From assembly GCA_018665965.1 (NCBI GenBank), contig JABJBF010000023.1, positions 64,001 to 77,692 of the forward strand: 13,692 bases of DNA, written 5' to 3'. Position 1 is the first letter of the stretch. The number at the start of each line of letters is the position of its first letter. Origin of the DNA: Candidatus Falkowbacteria bacterium. Its GTDB lineage: Bacteria; Patescibacteriota; Patescibacteriia; UBA11705; JABHMO01. Shown piece after piece: positions 1-13,466 of this stretch. The notes under the pieces were generated by a model, which saw only the letters and a program-made list of their open reading frames with translations, had not been told where the DNA came from and did no database searches. Made by a program: the position numbers and the translations under genes.

Positions 1-86
1 TGCTTTCATGTTTTTATGTTTTAATGGACAAAAAAACTCCCCAATAGATGCATTGAAGAGTTTTTCTTGACCGTTGCGGTCAGAAA

Positions 87-764
87 TTAGAAGGTTAGCG
101 CTACTGAGGCGAAGAACATATCTCCGCAGTCGCAGTCAGTACAGCGAGGTTGTGCGTTCACCGGCGTTGGCTGATTTGTGGAACTTTGCTTTGTACCGGA
201 TTCTTCCTGATGAAGGTATCCGGCCCAAACTCGAAGCCACTGCCAGGTGAAACTGGGTCCGAACCGATATCGGAAGTTGTCCAGCTTTTCCTGTTCCAGT
301 CCGAGCGAGATGAACATCCTGCGCTCGATCATAAAGTCAAGTGACTCGTAGGTTCTGAAGCCGACCGTGGGTTGGCTCTCGGCATTGTTGGCCTGGATGG
401 GAATGAAAAGATCCGCCTCCAACTTGAAACCTACAACCCGACTTACACGTTGATGCCAGCGACCGGTCAGAGCTACATTGTTGCTGCTCACGCCTGCGCC
501 CAACTGTTGACCAATCATCAGAACCAGTTTACTGTTCCGATCGACGTGGTACAACAGACCAAACATGGCATTCATCGTCTGGTAGTCAGTGATAAATGCA
601 TTGGCCTCGAACAGGACATCGAAGTTGTGAAACGCCCAGGACTCTATTGCACGGCTGAATCGCACGCGCATGTCAAAGTTTGACATATCCACATCTTTTG
701 CTTGCACGTTGCTGGCAAACATAATTATTCCTAAAATCACAAACAAATTGATGAACTTTCTCAT
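87..764 (-). CDS. Secreted hypothetical protein, 225 aa, with a cleavable N-terminal signal peptide and a GC-rich body. The C-terminus ...SVALTF resembles the terminal strand of an outer-membrane beta-barrel. Possibly DUF2490-like, but the family is unsure.
   Basis: The minus-strand ORF starts MRKFINLFVILGIIMFASNVQA-KD, a classic n-h-c signal peptide. A perfect AAGGAGG SD sits 5 nt upstream of the ATG (plus coordinates 765-779). A consensus promoter lies upstream. The body (about 100-640) is roughly 55-60% GC against about 33% for the rest of the window. The C-terminal residue is Phe, preceded by alternating hydrophobic residues. The + strand ORFs at 150-344 and 372-683 overlap antisense and are treated as artefacts. 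Confidence 0.6.
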   Translation of the reverse strand: MRKFINLFVILGIIMFASNVQAKDVDMSNFDMRVRFSRAIESWAFHNFDVLFEANAFITDYQTMNAMFGLLYHVDRNSKLVLMIGQQLGAGVSSNNVALTGRWHQRVSRVVGFKLEADLFIPIQANNAESQPTVGFRTYESLDFMIERRMFISLGLEQEKLDNFRYRFGPSFTWQWLRVWAGYLHQEESGTKQSSTNQPTPVNAQPRCTDCDCGDMFFASVALTF

Positions 765-811
765 GGTATCCTCCTTAAGGGAAAGTTATTTTTCAATCAT
801 CAAATCTTAGT

Positions 812-8166: not shown

Positions 8167-8193
8167 TTACATAATACGTATCACATAACACAT

Positions 8194-8217
8194 AACAGCA
8201 GTTTAGTTGTTTTTTTG
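8194..8217 (+). terminator. Weak intrinsic terminator after greA.
   Basis: aacagc-agttta-gttgtt forms a 6-bp stem with one G-U pair, followed by TTTTTTT. Confidence 0.3.
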
Positions 8218-8233
8218 TTTGGATAAAAAATGG

Positions 8234-8262
8234 TTGACAAAAATTAAGGTTTATTATAAACT
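8234..8262 (+). promoter_or_regulatory. Candidate sigma70 promoter for the small-gene pair, TTGACA-15-TATAAA or TTGACA-17-TAAACT.
   Basis: ttgaca is at 8234-8239 and tataaa at 8255-8260. The ORF A start at 8289 follows. Confidence 0.4.
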
Positions 8263-8288
8263 CTTTTGAAGTGATATGGAGGTGAATA

Positions 8289-8531
8289 ATGAGTGAAAGC
8301 AAGTATAGGCAATGGTTTCGTAAATCATTTTGGCGATCGAATAAAGATAGCAAAGATGGAATCGCTGAAGTTAATGACGGCTGCGTGCAAGCTGTTCTGG
8401 ATTTTGTGAATAAACACGGAATTGGAAGTTCTGATTATAAGATAGTGCCAATAACCTATGGAAGGGACGGCAACGGCGACGATTTTATGAATATTCAGTT
8501 GGCCTATTTTGCTGAAGAAGAGTTGAAATAG
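8289..8531 (+). CDS. Small hypothetical protein A, 80 aa. It is a paralog of the next gene.
   Basis: Strong SD GGAGGTG 5 nt upstream of the ATG. It shares an ordered series of motifs with ORF B: R-[ST]-x-KD, D-x-G-x5-FVN-[KR], aromatic-K-[IL], and the C-terminal Y-[FL]-[AS]-EE-x-L-[KE]. Confidence 0.6.
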   Translation: MSESKYRQWFRKSFWRSNKDSKDGIAEVNDGCVQAVLDFVNKHGIGSSDYKIVPITYGRDGNGDDFMNIQLAYFAEEELK

Positions 8532-8539
8532 GAGGCGTT

Positions 8540-8779
8540 ATGTCAAAAGTAGACACACCTCTAGAGTGGCAGATACGTGTATTCAGAACACACAGTAAAG
8601 ATCACGGTAATACTTATGACGACACTTTTGATGCTGGTCAAAGATTGGCCAAAGAGTTTGTTAATAGAAATAAAGCTGACATTAAGAAATTTAAGTTAAG
8701 TACCGCGATTGGGGATTCAGAGAATAGTTGTTCTTATTATGTGTACGTGTGGTACCTGAGTGAAGAAGCATTGGAGTAG
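8540..8779 (+). CDS. Small hypothetical protein B, 79 aa. It is a paralog of the preceding gene.
   Basis: SD AGGAGG overlaps the TAG stop of ORF A (aaaTAGGAGGcgttATG), indicating translational coupling. The same motif series as ORF A is present (FRTHSKD..DAGQRLAKEFVNRN...FKL...YLSEEALE). Confidence 0.6.
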   Translation: MSKVDTPLEWQIRVFRTHSKDHGNTYDDTFDAGQRLAKEFVNRNKADIKKFKLSTAIGDSENSCSYYVYVWYLSEEALE

Positions 8780-8821
8780 AAGTCAATAAGCGTTCTGGCA
8801 ATCTGGGACGTTTTTTATTTT

Positions 8822-8850
8822 TTGCAAAATTTTGCTAATTCAGGTATAAT
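8822..8850 (+). promoter_or_regulatory. Near-consensus sigma70 promoter TTGCAA-17-TATAAT upstream of the GxxExxY gene.
   Basis: ttgcaa is at 8822-8827, with a 17-nt spacer and tataat at 8845-8850. Confidence 0.5.
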
Positions 8851-8892
8851 TCTGTAAGTGAGTACTGAATAATACTGATATGCTGAATATTT

Positions 8893-9285
8893 ATGAGTAT
8901 TAATGTAAACAAAAATTATCCAGAATCGGAATTAACTGATAAAATAATAGGTGCAGCATTTGAAGTTTAAAATAGCTTAGGCAGTGGGCATAGAGAAAAG
9001 TATTATCAGTTGGCACTTGCTAAAGAGTTTAGACTTAATAAGATAAGGTATAAGGAACAGGTTAGAGTAGATCTTTTGTATAAAGGAGAAAAAATTGGTC
9101 GAAGAATATTTGATTTCGTTATAGATGGGCGGGTTGTCGTTGAGTTGAAGGTTGGTAGTTATCTTGCTAAAAGTGAATTCGATCAAATTAATGATTATTT
9201 AAGAATTTCTGGAAAAAAAGTTGGTTTGTTAATTTTATTTTCAAATAAAGGTGTTAAAATACGACGTGTTGTAAATTTAAAATAA
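8893..9285 (+). pseudogene. GxxExxY-family (PD-(D/E)xK nuclease fold) gene interrupted by a single in-frame TAA at 8968-8970.
   Basis: Reading from ATG 8893 gives MSINVNKNYPESELTDKIIGAAFEV*NSLGSGHREKYYQLALAKEF.... This continues in frame into the track ORF at 9010-9285 (...RRIFDFVIDGRVVVELKVGSYLAK...GLLILFSN). It matches the family consensus, including IIGAA.EV, the G-x-x-E-x-x-Y motif (GHREKYY) and the D...ELK catalytic motif. The stop replaces the usual His/Tyr after EV. There are no frameshifts. Confidence 0.65.
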
Positions 9286-9325
9286 ATTCAATAAGATTTG
9301 CTGATATTTACGTTCAGTAAATCAG

Positions 9326-9331
9326 TATAAT
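9326..9331 (+). promoter_or_regulatory. Perfect -10 hexamer TATAAT 15 nt upstream of the lysS ATG, implying a very short leader.
   Basis: cagTATAATtcagtaatcaattgtATG. The -35 is poor. Confidence 0.3.
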
Positions 9332-9346
9332 TCAGTAATCAATTGT

Positions 9347-10816
9347 ATGGAACAAAACGAAGAAGCAGTTCGCCTGCAAAAATTAGAAAAACTACAATCA
9401 ATGGGAGTAGAGCCTTATCCAGCTAAGTTTGACAAGAAACAGACTCTGGCTGAATGTAAAGAAATGAAGGAGGGCAAAAAAGTAAAGACTGCCGGTCGTT
9501 TAGTAATGTTTCGTGATATGGGCAAATTAACCTTTGCTCACTTAAGTGACTTTTCTGGTCGCATGCAAATTGCGTTCAAGCAAGATGATTTAGGTAAGGA
9601 TGATTATAAACAATTACAAAAAATAATTGATCTGGGTGATTTTATTGGAGTGGAAGGTGAGCTTTTTGTAACGCACAAAGGTGAACTAACTATCCTTGTT
9701 AATAAATGGACCTTTCTTGGTAAAGCTTTGAAACCATTACCTGAAAAATGGCATGGACTGAAAGATGTGGAAGCAACATACCGTCAGCGTTACTTGGATT
9801 TGATCTCCAATCCGGAAACCATGCAACGCTTTCAACTCCGTAGTAAATTTATCAGAGCTCTGCGGGAGTTTTATTGGCAAGAAGATTTTTTCGAAGTTGA
9901 GACTCCGACTTTACTGCATAGTGCCACTGGCGCGCATGCCAAACCTTACAAGACCCATAATAACGGTTTAGATATTGATGTGTTTCTTCGAATCTCACAT
10001 GAACTTCCATTGAAGCAATTGATCATTGGTGGTTATGATAAAATTTTTGAAATTGGCAAAGCATTCAGGAATGAAGGTATTGACCCATCACATTTACCAG
10101 AGCATACTCATTTAGAACATTATTGTGCTTATTGGGATTTTGAAGATAATATAAAATTCACTGAAAAGATGTTTGAATTTATTTTTAAGAAATTAAATTT
10201 ACCACATGAACTTGAAATTACCGGTAAGGATGGCAAAAAACGGAAAGTTAATTTCAAAACTCCGTGGAAGCGAGTGGACTTTATTGAGTTGGTAAAGAAA
10301 GATTGTGGGTTAGACGTTGCTAAGTATAAGAACCCAAAAGATTTAGTGAAAGATTTGAAAAAGAAGAAGATTCAAGTTGATGATATGGAGCATATGGGAC
10401 TGGCAACTTTGATTGATAACCTTTACAAAAAAGTTTCTCGACCAAAAATTATTGATCCAGTATTTTTATATCATTATCCAATTGAATTACAGCCCTTGGC
10501 GCGACGTAATGATGATGATTCAGAAATCGTTGACCAATTTCAGTTGGTTGTCGGTGGTTGGGAAATTGTCAAAGCTTATTCAGAGTTAGTTGACCCAATA
10601 GATCAAGAAAAACGATTCAAGGATCAGGCGAAACTTAAAAAATCTGGTGATGACGAAACCATGGAAGGTGATCCAGAATTTGTAGATTCAATGAAATACG
10701 GCATGCCACCAATTTCTGGTTGGGGAATGGGAATTGATCGAATTTTAACAATCCTGACTGAGCAAGATAATCTTCGTGATGTAGTTTTCTTTCCGTTGAT
10801 GAAACCAAAAGAATAA
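9347..10816 (+). CDS. lysS: Lysyl-tRNA synthetase, class II.
   Basis: 489 aa. The N-terminal OB-fold anticodon-binding domain is followed by a class II core with ...GKAFRNEGIDPSHLPEHT... (motif 2) and ...GMPPISGWGMGIDRILTIL (motif 3). Confidence 0.92.
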   Translation: MEQNEEAVRLQKLEKLQSMGVEPYPAKFDKKQTLAECKEMKEGKKVKTAGRLVMFRDMGKLTFAHLSDFSGRMQIAFKQDDLGKDDYKQLQKIIDLGDFIGVEGELFVTHKGELTILVNKWTFLGKALKPLPEKWHGLKDVEATYRQRYLDLISNPETMQRFQLRSKFIRALREFYWQEDFFEVETPTLLHSATGAHAKPYKTHNNGLDIDVFLRISHELPLKQLIIGGYDKIFEIGKAFRNEGIDPSHLPEHTHLEHYCAYWDFEDNIKFTEKMFEFIFKKLNLPHELEITGKDGKKRKVNFKTPWKRVDFIELVKKDCGLDVAKYKNPKDLVKDLKKKKIQVDDMEHMGLATLIDNLYKKVSRPKIIDPVFLYHYPIELQPLARRNDDDSEIVDQFQLVVGGWEIVKAYSELVDPIDQEKRFKDQAKLKKSGDDETMEGDPEFVDSMKYGMPPISGWGMGIDRILTILTEQDNLRDVVFFPLMKPKE

Positions 10817-10858
10817 ATATTACACAAATATTGTACAAATATTAAACAAATATTATTA
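10815..10858 (+). repeat. Four tandem copies of an 11-nt unit AAATATTnnnn immediately after the lysS stop.
   Basis: aaatattacac aaatattgtac aaatattaaac aaatattatta. Confidence 0.45.
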
Positions 10859-10861
10859 ATA

Positions 10862-10896
10862 AAAAACTCCGGTTCAATGTTGAGCACGGAGTTTTT
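10862..10896 (+). terminator. Palindromic intrinsic terminator for lysS, potentially bidirectional.
   Basis: aaaactccg - 15-nt loop - cggagttttt. An A-run precedes and a T-run follows, so it can terminate in either direction. Confidence 0.55.
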
Positions 10897-10902
10897 AGTT
10901 AG

Positions 10903-10935
10903 AAAAAAGCCCTAACCGATTGTCTGGTTAGGGCT
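10903..10935 (-). terminator. Intrinsic terminator oriented for minus-strand transcripts.
   Basis: Perfect 9-10 bp stem gccctaacc / ggttagggc with an 8-nt loop. AAAAAA precedes it on the plus strand, which is a U-run on the minus strand. Confidence 0.45.
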
Positions 10936-10985
10936 GTAGCGAAGCACACCTTCCGCTCGGGGCAGAGCGAGGAGGATTGTAAATC
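10903..10985 (-). ncRNA. Candidate small RNA of about 80 nt on the minus strand, with a CCUCCUC anti-SD motif, two GC hairpins and an intrinsic terminator.
   Basis: The minus-strand reading is ...tttact-17-tataat (plus-strand attata at 10987-10992), then uugauuuacaauCCUCCUCgcucugccccgagcg (hairpin), gaaggugugcuucgc (hairpin), and a terminator hairpin plus U-run. There is no ORF. This rests purely on structure and promoter logic. Confidence 0.25.
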
Positions 10986-11114
10986 AATTATAATATATGT
11001 AATGAAACAAGTAAAGTGAGATCACGTACCGAAATAAGGTCAAGAGCTTGGCAACATTTGTAGTGGAGTTAAATGTAATTAATTCTAGGATATAAATGTT
11101 CATAATTATTGTAT

Positions 11115-11245
11115 TTAGCCACCTGGCCCTGAAAGGGCCAGGCTAAGTTTTGTAAAGGCTACTAAAGTAGCCTGAAGAGACTTAGCCCCATTTATGGGGG
11201 TTTAGAATACAAATAGCCTGGGGTTTTCAACCCCAGGTGGCTAAG
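11115..11245. repeat. GC-rich nested inverted-repeat element with four hairpins and the GGCTAAG/CTTAGCC motif four times. It is a candidate structured ncRNA or riboswitch-like switch, or alternatively a MITE-like palindromic repeat.
   Basis: Hairpin A is 11115-11147 (ttagcc-ca-cctggccc-tgaaa-gggccagg-ctaag). Hairpin C is 11157-11172 (ggctac-taaa-gtagcc). Hairpin D is 11186-11199 (cccca-ttta-tgggg). Hairpin B is 11214-11245 (tagcctgggg-ttttcaa-ccccagg-tgg-ctaag). The 5' half of A (ttagccacctgg, 11115-11126) is perfectly complementary to the 3' half of B (ccaggtggctaa, 11233-11244). This gives mutually exclusive local and long-range folds. Confidence 0.4.
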
Positions 11246-11299
11246 TAGGCAAAATTTAACTCATTAATATTGCAAAGGTATTGAACCATTACGACGTAC

Positions 11300-11328
11300 T
11301 TGACAATTTAAGATTTATGTTATATACT
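11300..11328 (+). promoter_or_regulatory. Consensus sigma70 promoter TTGACA-17-TATACT for the zinc-ribbon gene.
   Basis: ttgaca is at 11300-11305, with a 17-nt spacer and tatact at 11323-11328. Alternatively TGn-TATATA (extended -10) at 11318-11326. Confidence 0.6.
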
Positions 11329-11371
11329 GTATTCTTCTAGTGACAGCTGTTAATTTAGTGGAGGTAATATC

Positions 11372-11581
11372 ATGAGTGTTGTAATTTGTCGGGACTGCGG
11401 GAAAAGCAAGTCTTTTTCTGCAATTGTCAGTGAGACTGGAGTGTGCAAGGATTGTGATGGGAAGCTGAGTGGTGAGAGAAGGACTCAGGCGCGCAATGCA
11501 GCGACATTCTCCACGTTCAAATTTGGCTCTGACAGAGAGAGGGAGGAAAGAATTGCTCATTTGGCCAGTATTGATCGCTAA
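11372..11581 (+). CDS. Small C4 zinc-ribbon protein of 69 aa (CxxC-x15-CxxC at the N-terminus, charged C-terminal tail). It resembles FmdB/zinc-ribbon-type putative regulators. GC-rich.
   Basis: SD GGAGG at 11360-11364 lies 7 nt before the ATG. MSVVICRDCGKSKSFSAIVSETGVCKDCDGKL.... A consensus promoter lies upstream and a strong terminator follows the stop. GC is about 48-50% against about 33% for the genome. The overlapping minus ORF at 11315-11674 and the + ORF at 11469-11657 are treated as artefacts. Confidence 0.6.
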   Translation: MSVVICRDCGKSKSFSAIVSETGVCKDCDGKLSGERRTQARNAATFSTFKFGSDREREERIAHLASIDR

Positions 11582-11611
11582 TAAGTATTTAGCTAGAAAT
11601 GATACACAAGA

Positions 11612-11642
11612 AGGCGCGAAACAATGTTTCGCGCCTTTTTTA
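11612..11642 (+). terminator. Strong rho-independent terminator.
   Basis: aggcgcgaaaca-a-tgtttcgcgcct is a perfect 12-nt inverted repeat (11612-11636) followed by TTTTTT. Confidence 0.7.
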
Positions 11643-11915
11643 GTACATTTTGAATAAAAATGCCCCAAATGCACTGTGCAAATGGGGCTCCTCCAGATTT
11701 AGGTGCAGCCATATAGGGATTGTTACTGAATACAGCTTCTACTGCAATTCTCAAATTTTAGCTATTATCTCCTAAAATTCTTTCAACAATATTAATACAT
11801 TGCCTCATGAATTTTTGAAGATTCTATCACAGGATTTTAGAGTTTCGTGACGAACCTGTTTTCTGTAACAAGCCCTTAAGGAGGACTGAGCAATATAGCA
11901 TACATTTTTGGTTTT

Positions 11916-11962
11916 GTCAACCTGTTGTTCTACAGCCATGCAGTATCGCATGGCAGGTTGAC
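11916..11962 (+). promoter_or_regulatory. Nested stem-loop just upstream of the putative serS promoter. An orphan AAGGAGG at 11877-11883 precedes it.
   Basis: gtcaacctg(9 bp)-ttgttctacag-ccatgc-agtatc-gcatgg-caggttgac. An overlapping second hairpin follows: accttg...caaggt (11961-11987). The element lies within a 560-nt ORF-free region. Confidence 0.3.
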
Positions 11963-11991
11963 CTTGAGTTGACCGAAAGGCCAAGGTTATT

Positions 11992-12020
11992 TTGCTAAAT
12001 TTTGTGATATTTAGTATAAT
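11992..12020 (+). promoter_or_regulatory. Candidate sigma70 promoter TTGCTA-17-TATAAT for serS.
   Basis: ttgcta is at 11992-11997, with a 17-nt spacer and tataat at 12015-12020. A second TATAAT lies at about 12127-12132, after a ccccttgggg palindrome. Confidence 0.45.
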
Positions 12021-12200
12021 AGTTCATATGAAAACACCTAATAAACAATACTAAATACCCAATTCTTACTGAAAATTATCGACTGGACATTTCATATTGT
12101 ATATTTTCCTATTTTTCCCCTTGGGGGTATAATATTTTTGATATTTTATAAATATCTCAACTCTTAACTTTATAAACTTTTTAACTTTTAACTAAATAAT

Positions 12201-13466
12201 ATGCTAGACATAAAATACATTCGTGAAAACAAGGAGCAGTTGAAACAAATTGCTCGACATAAAAATATTCAGGTTGATATTGATAAGCTTTTACAATTAG
12301 ATGAAAAACGTAGAAAGCTAACGCAACAACTTGAGGAATTACGCACTCGCAAGAATCAGGTTAGTAAACAAATTCCACAAATGCAGGAAAGTGAAAAACA
12401 ACAAGCGTTTGTTGAAATGAAGGAAGTTAGCGCACTGCAAGACGAGATTGAGGGCAAGTTAAAGCCACTTCTGACTGAATATGAAAATTTAATGTTGAGT
12501 GTTCCAATGTATATTCATGAAAATGTGCCAATTGGTGCAGATGAAAGTGGTAACATTGAAATTGAAAAGGTGGGTGAACCGACAAAGTTTGATTTTCCTC
12601 CCAAGGATCATATGACACTTGGTGCTGATCTGGATATTATTGACAATGAACGCGCTGTAAAAATTGGAGGTAGTCGATCTTACTTATTGAAAGGTGATGG
12701 CGCGCGATTGGAAGCCGCAGTTCTTAAATATGCAGAAGATTTCATTTCTCGCAAAGGTTATACTCTGATGAATGTACCAGTGATTGTTAATGAAGCTGCT
12801 ATGAGAGGCACTGGCTTTTTCCCTGGATCAGAGGATGAAACCTATCACCTGGAAAAAGATGACAAATATTTAGTTGGTACATCTGAAGTTGCTATTGGTT
12901 CATATCATGCTAATGAGATTTTAAAAGAAGAAGATTTACCACTTCGTTACGCCGGCTTTTCAGTTTGTTTTCGCCGTGAAGCAGGTTCTTATGGAAAAGA
13001 TACTCATGGTTTGTACAGAGTTCATCAGTTTATGAAGATTGAGCAGTTTGTTATTTGCAAAAATGATGAGAAGGTATCTATGGAAATGCATGCTGAATTA
13101 TTGAACAATTCAAAAGAGTTTATGCAAAGTCTAAAGTTACCATTCCGAGTTTTGAATATTTGTACTGGTGACATGGGACAAGGTAAATATTATATGAATG
13201 ATATTGAGACCTGGATGCCTAGTCGAGAGGGCTATGGTGAAACTCATAGTGCATCAGCTTTGCTGGACTTTCAATCACGTCGATTAAATCTTCGATATAA
13301 AGACAGTGAAGGTCAAATTCATTTTTGTCATACATTAAATAATACAGTTGTAGCTACACCAAGAGTTTTGATTCCGTTAATGGAAATTTATCAAACCAAG
13401 GATGGTAAAATTCAAGTTCCAGAAGTTCTTCAGCCGTATATTGATAATCAGCAGGAGATTGGTTAA
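12201..13466 (+). CDS. serS: Seryl-tRNA synthetase, class II.
   Basis: 421 aa. The N-terminal coiled-coil tRNA-binding arm (KEQLKQIARHK...LEELRTRKNQVSKQI) is followed by the catalytic core with ...FRREAGSYGKDTHGLYRVHQF (motif 2) and ...GETHSASA.... No T-box leader sequence was recognised upstream. Confidence 0.92.
   Translation: MLDIKYIRENKEQLKQIARHKNIQVDIDKLLQLDEKRRKLTQQLEELRTRKNQVSKQIPQMQESEKQQAFVEMKEVSALQDEIEGKLKPLLTEYENLMLSVPMYIHENVPIGADESGNIEIEKVGEPTKFDFPPKDHMTLGADLDIIDNERAVKIGGSRSYLLKGDGARLEAAVLKYAEDFISRKGYTLMNVPVIVNEAAMRGTGFFPGSEDETYHLEKDDKYLVGTSEVAIGSYHANEILKEEDLPLRYAGFSVCFRREAGSYGKDTHGLYRVHQFMKIEQFVICKNDEKVSMEMHAELLNNSKEFMQSLKLPFRVLNICTGDMGQGKYYMNDIETWMPSREGYGETHSASALLDFQSRRLNLRYKDSEGQIHFCHTLNNTVVATPRVLIPLMEIYQTKDGKIQVPEVLQPYIDNQQEIG

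Follow-up and report, generated by a model that had tools for sequence, protein, structure and literature searches.

What lies between lysS and serS in an uncultured marine member of the Patescibacteria (CPR), Falkowbacteria/Kuenenbacteria-like: one acquired cassette, or several things that came together independently? Working on a window of 13,692 nucleotides (the whole stretch of DNA that was analysed), a preliminary description took positions 10892-11643 for a compositionally foreign, self-contained module, in which a small zinc-ribbon gene and a structured RNA could act as one unit. We find another reading preferable, with a probability of about 0.8, according to which the segment is a mosaic made up of four independent parts: a MITE, a resident small gene, a candidate minus-strand small RNA (sRNA) and terminator tails. 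The features on which the argument depends are the following.

9347-10816: lysS, left flanking gene of the segment
10862-10899, plus strand: lysS intrinsic terminator (hairpin at about 10862-10896, then T-run; -18.5 kcal/mol, z = -6.2)
10903-10982, minus strand: candidate small RNA of about 80 nt (fold of -30.6 kcal/mol, z = -3.9)
10987-11015, minus strand: promoter-like site TTTACT-17-TATAAT for the candidate sRNA (10 of 12 positions in a promoter scan)
11024-11029: left target-site duplication ACGTAC (same 6-mer at 11294-11299, both abutting the MITE ends)
[quoted passage not shown]
11294-11299: right target-site duplication ACGTAC, immediately followed by the -35 box
11300-11328, plus strand: sigma-70-type promoter of ORF69, TTGACA-17-TATACT (11 of 12 consensus positions in the promoter scan), outside the MITE
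11360-11364, plus strand: Shine-Dalgarno GGAGG, 7 nt before the ATG at 11372
11372-11581, plus strand: ORF69, 69 aa, with a putative N-terminal four-Cys zinc ribbon (C6, C9, C25, C28)
11611-11644, plus strand: ORF69 intrinsic terminator (12-bp perfect stem, AAU loop, T-run; -22.7 kcal/mol, z = -7.6)
12201-13466: serS, right flanking gene of the segment

Most of the signals listed in the preliminary description proved real, namely the TTGACA-17-TATACT promoter with the ribosome binding site GGAGG, the 69-aa ORF and three intrinsic terminators. The minus-strand terminator was located at 10908-10935 (10 bp and a T-run), the GC-rich small hairpin announced for 10940-10975 at 10946-10972, and the 12-bp perfect stem of the last terminator at 11611-11637, followed by its T-run. 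The multi-hairpin element was confirmed as well, at about 11112-11247, where it folds at -75.6 kcal/mol (z = -7.3).

The multi-hairpin element is the core of a 264-bp MITE

These 130 nt of hairpins form the palindromic core of a MITE that is 264 bp long. First, the size of the element falls within the 50-800 bp of MITEs and it has no transposase gene, no ORF of at least 50 aa being found within 11030-11293. Second, it ends in imperfect terminal inverted repeats (TIRs) of about 25-45 nt (11030-11055 and 11268-11293), above the 10-15 bp expected as a minimum. When CGAAATAAGGTCAAGAGCTTGGCAA is aligned with TTGCAAAGGTATTGAACCATTACG in reverse complement, the two agree at 33 of 51 positions, with an alignment score of 38 against a mean of 12.5 for shuffles (sd 4.8, maximum 26), about 5 sd above, and both ends pair with each other in whole-element folds. 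Third, its target-site duplications (TSDs), within the 2-10 bp range, are copy-specific. Fourth, there are several copies at unrelated sites and an empty orthologous site. Between the ends, the core forms a five-way hairpin, built from two inverted units of 31-34 nt (11115-11145 and 11214-11244) and two inner hairpins; none of 200 shuffles was as stable as the core. The MITE also matches its own reverse orientation at E = 1.7e-8. The core hairpins reflect inverted repeats nested within a DNA transposon and do not mark a dedicated RNA gene; a transposase probably mobilised the element in trans.

By scanning metagenomes with a hairpin-arm pattern, we found three other MITE loci, 90-96% identical to window positions 11028-11336 and with unrelated flanks. 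The same genome carries at least four full copies, and two degenerate half-copies are known as well. A single MAG contig, JABJLN010000001.1, holds both the native locus (L005) and another copy (L106), about 110 kb from each other. Perfect 6-bp TSDs occur at both ends in two of the three intact copies (ACGTAC in the window, ACTCAC at L095), the third, L094, having a degenerate one (TAATGA / TAACTC); the L096 copy is truncated on its left side. For one copy, an empty orthologous site was found in a relative (L103), where the intergenic region between rhomboid and DUF389 genes measures 165 nt versus 420 nt with the MITE. The two regions are collinear after deleting the MITE and one TSD, and the DUF389 proteins are 85% identical. 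For the native lysS-serS copy, none of the 23 contigs with the same LysS has an empty site; the junction predicted there is GAGATCACGTACTTGACAATTTAAG. Contigs of several assemblies break off inside MITE copies. Viral contigs scanned with the hairpin-arm pattern gave 0 matches. Within about 67 kb of this genome we found neither an autonomous element or transposase with matching ends nor any further TIR-like site. The Logan contig start at 11218 might have marked a second context of the right arm, but a metagenome scan for this arm preceded by a left neighbour other than the native one (DCTGGGG...) gave 0 matches. These data document a non-autonomous transposon, active now or until recently, in the streamlined genome of a member of the CPR/Patescibacteria.

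Alternatively, the structured element could function as an RNA gene present in several copies, or as a cis-regulatory module of RNA or DNA, set in front of a series of promoters and maintained by selection, or it could be a domesticated MITE. Its very stable fold, 11 kcal/mol more stable on the plus than on the minus strand, would agree with this, as would the seven occurrences of the 5-mer TAGCC/GGCTA within the 130 nt of the core and the placement of all four copies in the same orientation, at a fixed 6-7 nt from a -35 box. In addition, a diverged partial copy has two compensatory double substitutions in its hairpins, with 96% of cells paired. However, these compensatory changes rest on one sequence, and in L094 a wobble and a mismatch in the stems, among otherwise near-identical copies, fit neutral decay. 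The promoter and terminator scan found no convincing promoter or terminator flanking the core, Rfam has no match to it, and no copy was found in about 90 kb of related genomes. The copy-specific 6-bp direct repeats, the TIRs and the empty orthologous site argue for a MITE, and we regard a selected RNA or module as improbable. For annotation, the lesson is that a very stable "structured RNA" beside a small gene can be a MITE core, to which the label of RNA gene or protein-RNA module is wrongly given.

We then compared the insertion contexts. In all four copies, a TTGACA -35 box lies 6-7 nt past the right end, where about 1e-3 per copy would be expected by chance. The downstream genes have no relation to one another: ORF69, a gene for an 88-aa membrane protein, a rhomboid gene and one for a 303-aa protein. 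Homology among copies stops before the TSD, and the -35 box at the L095/L104 copy exists also in a MITE-free relative. Thus, the MITE lands beside promoters and carries none; the promoter scan detected no internal sigma-70-like promoter in it. At the native locus, it ends exactly 6 bp before the -35 box of ORF69, having probably inserted between two promoters that diverge. Removing 11030-11299 suggests that, before insertion, the promoters of ORF69 and of the sRNA side stood back-to-back with 14 bp between their -35 boxes.

The position 6-7 bp upstream of TTGACA in 4/4 copies may reflect a choice of target site or else, the genome being compact, strong selection for sites where insertion does no harm. 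Only tentatively do we propose that integration is promoter-guided, being directed, in one orientation, to 6 bp upstream of sigma-70 -35 hexamers (TTGACA). Such a choice could come from a transposase recognising TTGA(A/C)C-like motifs, and motifs of this kind are also found 8-9 nt inside both MITE ends. Should this placement 6-7 bp upstream of the -35 box hold genome-wide, it would amount to a promoter-proximal target preference of unusual precision. Divergent promoters would also come to be separated by a stable block, cruciform or hairpin, which might insulate or tune them.

The resident gene for a putative zinc-ribbon protein and a candidate small RNA

ORF69 encodes a protein with the motif C6xxC9-x15-C25xxC28 and a charged, predicted helical C-terminal part. 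At the corresponding position in a relative with 78% LysS identity, between lysS and serS, we found a homologue of 49 aa, P0004. The two proteins match by BLASTP at E = 1e-6, with 12 identical residues out of 30, all four Cys included; P0004 shows the motif IC-x2-CG-x4-FS-x-I-x4-G-x-C-x2-C-x-G. A TTGACA promoter and a terminator belong to the P0004 gene itself, and the MITE is absent there. ORF69 is a resident gene that predates the MITE at this position. A functional unit made of the zinc-ribbon protein and the structured RNA, as put forward in the preliminary description, is unlikely because the homologous gene occupies a lysS-serS gap without the element. The element, for its part, is independently mobile and is found upstream of unrelated genes elsewhere in the same genome.

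Beyond P0004, no homologue of ORF69 was found among 1.84 billion representative proteins. A word-indexed protein search returned ORF69 itself only, and an exhaustive phmmer search added two marginal repeat proteins (E of about 5e-4), which we judged to be CxxC or low-complexity noise. A profile of ORF69 and P0004 recovers those two clusters only; the family consists of two species-level clusters, and the protein is an orphan of two species. No significant family was found in Pfam, NCBIfam or PDB (best E 0.015-0.06), and Foldseek with the ORF69 model gave no match at E <= 0.001. FmdB and DksA-TraR profiles, suggested earlier for the 69-aa protein, did not fit: FmdB or DksA gave no Pfam match at E <= 10, and TraR (TIGR02419) reached E = 0.18 and 12.4 bits against a cut-off of 59.7. 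ORF69 resembles small stand-alone zinc-ribbon proteins (rubredoxin-like CxxC...CxxC knuckles, as in Pfam zinc_ribbon families and small DUF-type proteins) in its small size, its N-terminal CxxC pair 15 residues apart and its charged tail, but differs from the small zinc-ribbon families in having no significant Pfam, NCBIfam or PDB family. Its product might be a small nucleic-acid- or protein-binding factor, a suggestion of low confidence.

Could ORF69 not be a gene at all, its promoter and terminator serving a short non-coding transcript? It is an orphan in libraries of 5.8 and 1.84 billion proteins, and its GC1/2/3 of 0.44/0.51/0.47 is unlike that of neighbouring genes (GC2/GC3 of about 0.30/0.30); some gene callers miss it, and it is uncalled in several assemblies. 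Against this, its strong ribosome binding site has an ideal spacing, and the same-position ORF of the relative keeps the start, the four Cys and seven more residues over 30 aa. Moreover, the strands and helix of a zinc ribbon are predicted at a pLDDT of about 70-80 (69.6 for the whole AlphaFold model; short strands 2-6 and 12-13 at 75-82). We therefore hold a non-coding transcript to be unlikely and keep ORF69 as a resident gene.

On the other side of the MITE, the left-hand GC-rich hairpins and the minus-strand terminator may together form a candidate sRNA unit of about 80 nt, divergent from ORF69. As predicted from sequence, this RNA would carry CCUCCU in its 5' region, then the hairpin at 10946-10972, with a C-rich loop, and the terminator at 10908-10935 with a U-run. 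No ORF is present within 10903-10982. In Rfam nothing reached threshold for the candidate, the best, anti-hemB, scoring 20.8 bits where the gathering score is 49.5.

Composition and variability of the lysS-serS gap

The preliminary description favoured a single horizontally acquired cassette spanning 10892-11643, of regulatory or defence type, pointing among other things to its composition and to a bracketing 8-mer. A GC content of 45-55% against 33% had been claimed; we measured 40.4% for 10892-11643 against 36.1% for the window, lysS and serS being at 36.5-36.6%. Among windows of equal size, the segment ranks within the top ~4% by GC and within the top ~5% by tetranucleotide distance. The contrast is far below the one claimed, and positions 1-780 of the window, at 48.7% GC, exceed the flagged segment. 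Only sub-parts have a GC content as high as claimed (47.6% for ORF69, 45.4% for the hairpin core, 57.5% for 10903-10975). As for the 8-mer TTTTTAGT, it is present on both sides, at 10892-10899 and 11637-11644 (the right copy one base off the position first given), but its bracketing has no significance. The window contains three occurrences versus 2.04 expected, and at least three were seen in 68 of 200 shuffles. The first copy is the T-tail of the lysS terminator and the second that of the ORF69 terminator, a pair at chance level.

Comparison with relatives shows that the lysS-serS gap is a variable intergenic hot spot and not core genome. Whether the two genes adjoin elsewhere varies: the gap measures 28-65 bp in the distant relatives compared, and 337-2241 bp in closer ones, where the small genes differ. 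When the relatives' gap-encoded proteins were searched against the window gap by tblastn, the zinc-ribbon match was the sole recovery. For the biology of CPR/Patescibacteria, this documents an intergenic hot spot with turnover of small lineage-specific genes. Among contigs with the same LysS, the spacing is 1384 bp in 23 of 23, with no presence/absence polymorphism, and the native gap sequence is 99.9-100% identical across the nine copies of the gap compared. Of known RNAs, the whole window has no Rfam match at gathering score, and an Rfam scan of 10780-12260 at E <= 10 gave sub-threshold scores of 15-29 bits at best (thresholds 37-79), with no T-box before serS; ARAGORN found no tRNA or tmRNA.

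The earlier interpretation is thus partly borne out, as the region is non-core and holds a mobile element, but a single module bracketed by the 8-mer seems quite unlikely. In its favour are the composition, in the top 4-5% of the window, the GC3 of ORF69 (0.47 vs about 0.30 in its neighbours) and the variable gap content, the closest relative (L014, 87% LysS identity) being without ORF69. Against it, the block is composite, the MITE having its own TSDs and copies elsewhere; the 8-mers are chance-level terminator tails; a homologous zinc-ribbon gene sits at the same position in another species; and the 1384-bp spacing is invariant. Nor was there a match in defence, phage or plasmid libraries: the segment had none in phage and plasmid sequences by BLAST, ORF69 and P0004 matched 0 PADLOC families at E <= 1, and ORF69 nothing significant in PHROGs.

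Relation to known repeat families

The 264-bp element belongs to a known kind, the bacterial MITE, as defined and exemplified by Correia, ERIC/IRU, Chunjie and Nezha elements (PMC11602168, PMC10969869). Like these, it is a small non-coding repeat with TIRs and short TSDs, intergenic and often just upstream of genes, with predicted transcripts that are very stable stem-loops and with degenerate and partial copies alongside full ones. In sequence, it has no similarity to Correia (Neisseria), ERIC/IRU (enterobacteria), Chunjie or Nezha (other bacteria). Correia elements duplicate TA, whereas the TSD is 6 bp here; they also carry promoters, while no sigma-70-like one was detected inside the 264-bp element. 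It further differs from known bacterial MITEs by its low copy number (at least four full copies), by the presence of a pre-existing -35 box 6-7 bp downstream of each copy and by its CPR/Patescibacteria host, for which no MITE report was found in the literature searched.

We hold it very improbable that the element is a REP/REPIN-type repeat moved by a RAYT (Y1) transposase, or a fragment from the end of an IS200/IS605 or IS110 element. The core shares with REP/REPIN two inverted hairpin units of about 34 nt with compensatory differences, which give a long imperfect palindrome, and the hairpin modules reappear in a second arrangement at L094 3779-3993. Unlike these families, the element has variable 6-bp TSDs and outer TIRs; its copies are few, no recombinase ORF is adjacent to them and no RAYT gene was seen at the copy loci examined. 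Integron attC, inverton, DGR, IS110 bridge RNA and 6S RNA were also considered for the core and rejected, either for want of partner genes, or because the geometry of the repeats did not fit, or in view of the TSDs and TIRs.

The MITE copies also recall putative mobile promoters, described as near-identical upstream sequence before non-homologous genes of one genome (Matus-Garcia et al. 2012; PMC3488235), a pattern seen here too. In contrast to these, the repeat ends before the promoter, and the -35 and -10 boxes differ between copies downstream of TTGACA.

The compensatory changes in two hairpins of the diverged partial copy and the constant orientation towards a downstream promoter would also allow the element an additional role, at the RNA level or as a DNA site.

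A repeated element between lysS and serS

The window carries hisS, mreB, mreC, mreD, a gene for a PBP2-type transpeptidase, greA, three small genes, lysS and serS, and nearly all the signals that a preliminary description had listed for the lysS-serS gap are present in the sequence:

9347-10816: lysS
10862-10896: lysS terminator
10908-10935, minus strand: terminator
10946-10972: hairpin
11300-11328: ORF69 promoter, TTGACA-17-TATACT
7 nt upstream of the ATG at 11372: RBS, GGAGG
11372-11581, plus strand: ORF69, a 69-aa zinc-ribbon ORF (CxxC-x15-CxxC)
11611-11637: ORF69 terminator, 12-bp stem
12201-13466: serS

By exact-protein look-ups, we found the window sequence on marine metagenome contigs (including Saanich Inlet samples) and in three MAGs, with 99.9-100% identity over the region of interest. 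A protein from the same MAG contig is labelled Candidatus Falkowbacteria by NCBI, and the closest species-level relatives according to LysS are CPR/Patescibacteria MAGs (Candidatus Kuenenbacteria bin.190, 87% identity; Parcubacteria GW2011_GWA2_40_23, 73%; a Falkowbacteria MAG, 68%).

A multi-hairpin core (~11112-11247) folds at -75.6 kcal/mol (z = -7.3; minus strand, -64.6 kcal/mol, z = -6.3) and holds two inverted ~34-nt units (11112-11145 and 11214-11247), whose differences at the hairpin tip are compensatory. Several assemblies break off within the element, which suggests a repeat. By scanning metagenomes with a pattern derived from the ~34-nt unit, we found four stretches representing three loci besides the native one, and these counts are lower bounds since the native contigs were missing from the output even though the pattern has matches on both strands of the window. 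Between unrelated flanks, the three other loci match window 11028-11336 at 90-96% identity, and the block common to the copies is 264 bp long (11030-11293).

First, the element ends are imperfect inverted repeats (~5 sd over shuffles) that pair with each other in whole-element folds, and the element matches its own reverse orientation at E = 1.7e-8. Second, the element is directly flanked by 6-bp direct repeats whose sequence is specific to the copy. These are ACGTAC at 11024-11029 and 11294-11299 of the window and ACTCAC in the rhomboid-locus copy; the duplication is degenerate in the third intact copy, and the fourth copy is truncated on its left side. Third, a relative with an 85% identical flanking DUF389 protein provides an empty site, as its rhomboid-DUF389 intergenic region (165 nt vs 420 nt) lines up collinearly with the focal sequence after deletion of the element and one duplication from the latter. 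One of the other copies lies ~110 kb from the native locus on a single MAG contig. No copies were found in the relatives' loci, and no transposase partner in ~67 kb of this genome.

These features agree with how prokaryotic MITEs are defined in the literature (PMC11602168, PMC10969869), and the element acts like and qualifies as one. It belongs to no named MITE family, to neither REP nor REPIN elements and to no Rfam family, and no account of MITEs from CPR bacteria turned up in the literature searched.

Locus L094 holds two degenerate half-copies of the core (hairpins P4-P5; 3779-3993) that face each other ~70 nt apart. Their hairpins are kept through two compensatory double changes, with 96% of cells paired (covariation from one sequence), and they are probably a second, smaller subfamily. 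At L096, another copy locus, other hairpins (CGGTCTCTAGACCGGG and CCCGGTCTAAAGACCGGGG) replace the left end. Contigs from independent assemblies (L005, L008, L009, L010, L107) end inside MITE copies, at window 11104, 11113 and 11218 and in the rhomboid-DUF389 copy; two ENA contigs begin outside the element, at 11342.

Position of the insertions

To the right of each of the four copies come 6-7 variable bases (the duplication), TTGACA, a -10-like hexamer 16-17 nt further on, an RBS and then a different gene, encoding ORF69, an 88-aa membrane protein, a rhomboid protease or a 303-aa protein. TTGACA lies outside the element: the 6-mer between the two differs among copies, and the element-free relative, too, has the -35 box at the rhomboid locus. 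At the TTGACA density seen over ~67 kb of this genome, the observed spacing would arise by chance with a probability of ~1e-3 per copy, which implies either target choice or strong selection. In the window, the insertion would have separated two back-to-back promoters, a minus-strand TTTACT-17-TATAAT (11015-10987) and that of ORF69, previously 14 bp apart. Repeated sequences upstream of unrelated genes have been discussed as mobile promoters (PMC3488235); our element shares this placement, but here the promoter is resident. The position next to the -35 box deserves a genome-wide test.

Variability and composition of the gap

The hisS-mreBCD-pbp2-greA-lysS-serS synteny is conserved among relatives, whereas the lysS-serS spacing is not constant.

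Length and content of the lysS-serS gap
L016, L017, L083 (distant relatives): 28-65 bp; none
L011: 337 bp; zinc-ribbon gene
L013 / L012: 510 / 588 bp; 63-65-aa membrane protein, minus strand
L088: 667 bp; lipoprotein-like gene
L014: 2241 bp; 80-aa and 488-aa secreted protein
Window: 1384 bp; ORF69, MITE, candidate small RNAs

This variation agrees with the earlier proposal that the segment (10892-11643) is not core genome, but does not support a single imported cassette. The claimed GC contrast was overstated (40.4% vs 36.1% for the window): among same-size windows, the segment ranks in the top ~4% for GC, below window 1-780, and in the top ~5% for tetranucleotide distance. Its most deviant part is ORF69 (47.6% GC; GC3 0.47 vs ~0.30 in neighbouring genes), and other genes of the same genome reach GC3 of 0.38-0.44. 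The 8-mer said to bracket the segment occurs three times in the window (2.04 expected), both bracketing copies being terminator T-tails.

The greA-lysS gap (8167-9346) is a second variable islet: its three small genes (80 aa, 79 aa and a 91-aa PDDEXK_3 protein) are missing in L011, where ~24 nt separate greA from lysS. Window 1-780 has the highest GC (48.7%) and carries a minus-strand ORF (87-764) whose 225-aa product has a signal peptide and matches no Pfam family. Past the window end, 3' of serS (L001 12108-16698), three genes in a row, none with a Pfam hit (352, 585 and 469 aa), are 83-85% identical over 5' stretches of 128-219 nt and form a paralogous family with conserved N-termini.

ORF69 and candidate small RNAs

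ORF69 has a full set of expression signals. Two very large protein libraries held no homologues beyond its own cluster, and no significant family or structural match was found. By reading the relatives' lysS-serS gaps, we found in L011 (LysS identity 78%) a 49-aa ORF with a TTGACA promoter, a GGAGG-type RBS and a terminator, whose first 30 residues are 40% identical to ORF69, with all four Cys conserved (BLASTP E = 1e-6 for the pair). It is called as a gene on six contigs, each time in the lysS-serS gap and with no MITE there. We regard ORF69 as a genuine small protein of zinc-ribbon type, restricted to its lineage; most likely, though this is tentative, it is a small factor that binds nucleic acid or protein.

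On the left, a ~80-nt non-coding minus-strand unit (z = -3.9) comprises the promoter-like site at 11015-10987, a C-rich-loop hairpin after CCUCCU and the terminator at 10935-10908. Neither a relative of this unit among the sequences compared nor an Rfam match was found, and it is a candidate small RNA only. Also on the minus strand (11650-11920), a near-consensus promoter, TTGACA(11920)-17-TATATT(11892) with TG upstream, precedes a predicted ~237-nt non-coding transcript with its own terminator (~11656-11692), folding as a closed rod that pairs 5' GUCCUCC with 3' GGAGGAG (-73.1 kcal/mol, z = -5.2). Relatives have small membrane or secreted protein genes on this strand instead, and the unit may be either an sRNA or a gene that has decayed. 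Upstream of serS, we found neither a T-box nor another Rfam leader. The serS promoter TTGCTA-17-TATAAT is conserved with L014 (window 11992-12200), and a leader motif TCCCC-loop-GGGGA (12115-12127) also occurs in the lysS-serS gaps of three relatives (L012, L013 and L014).
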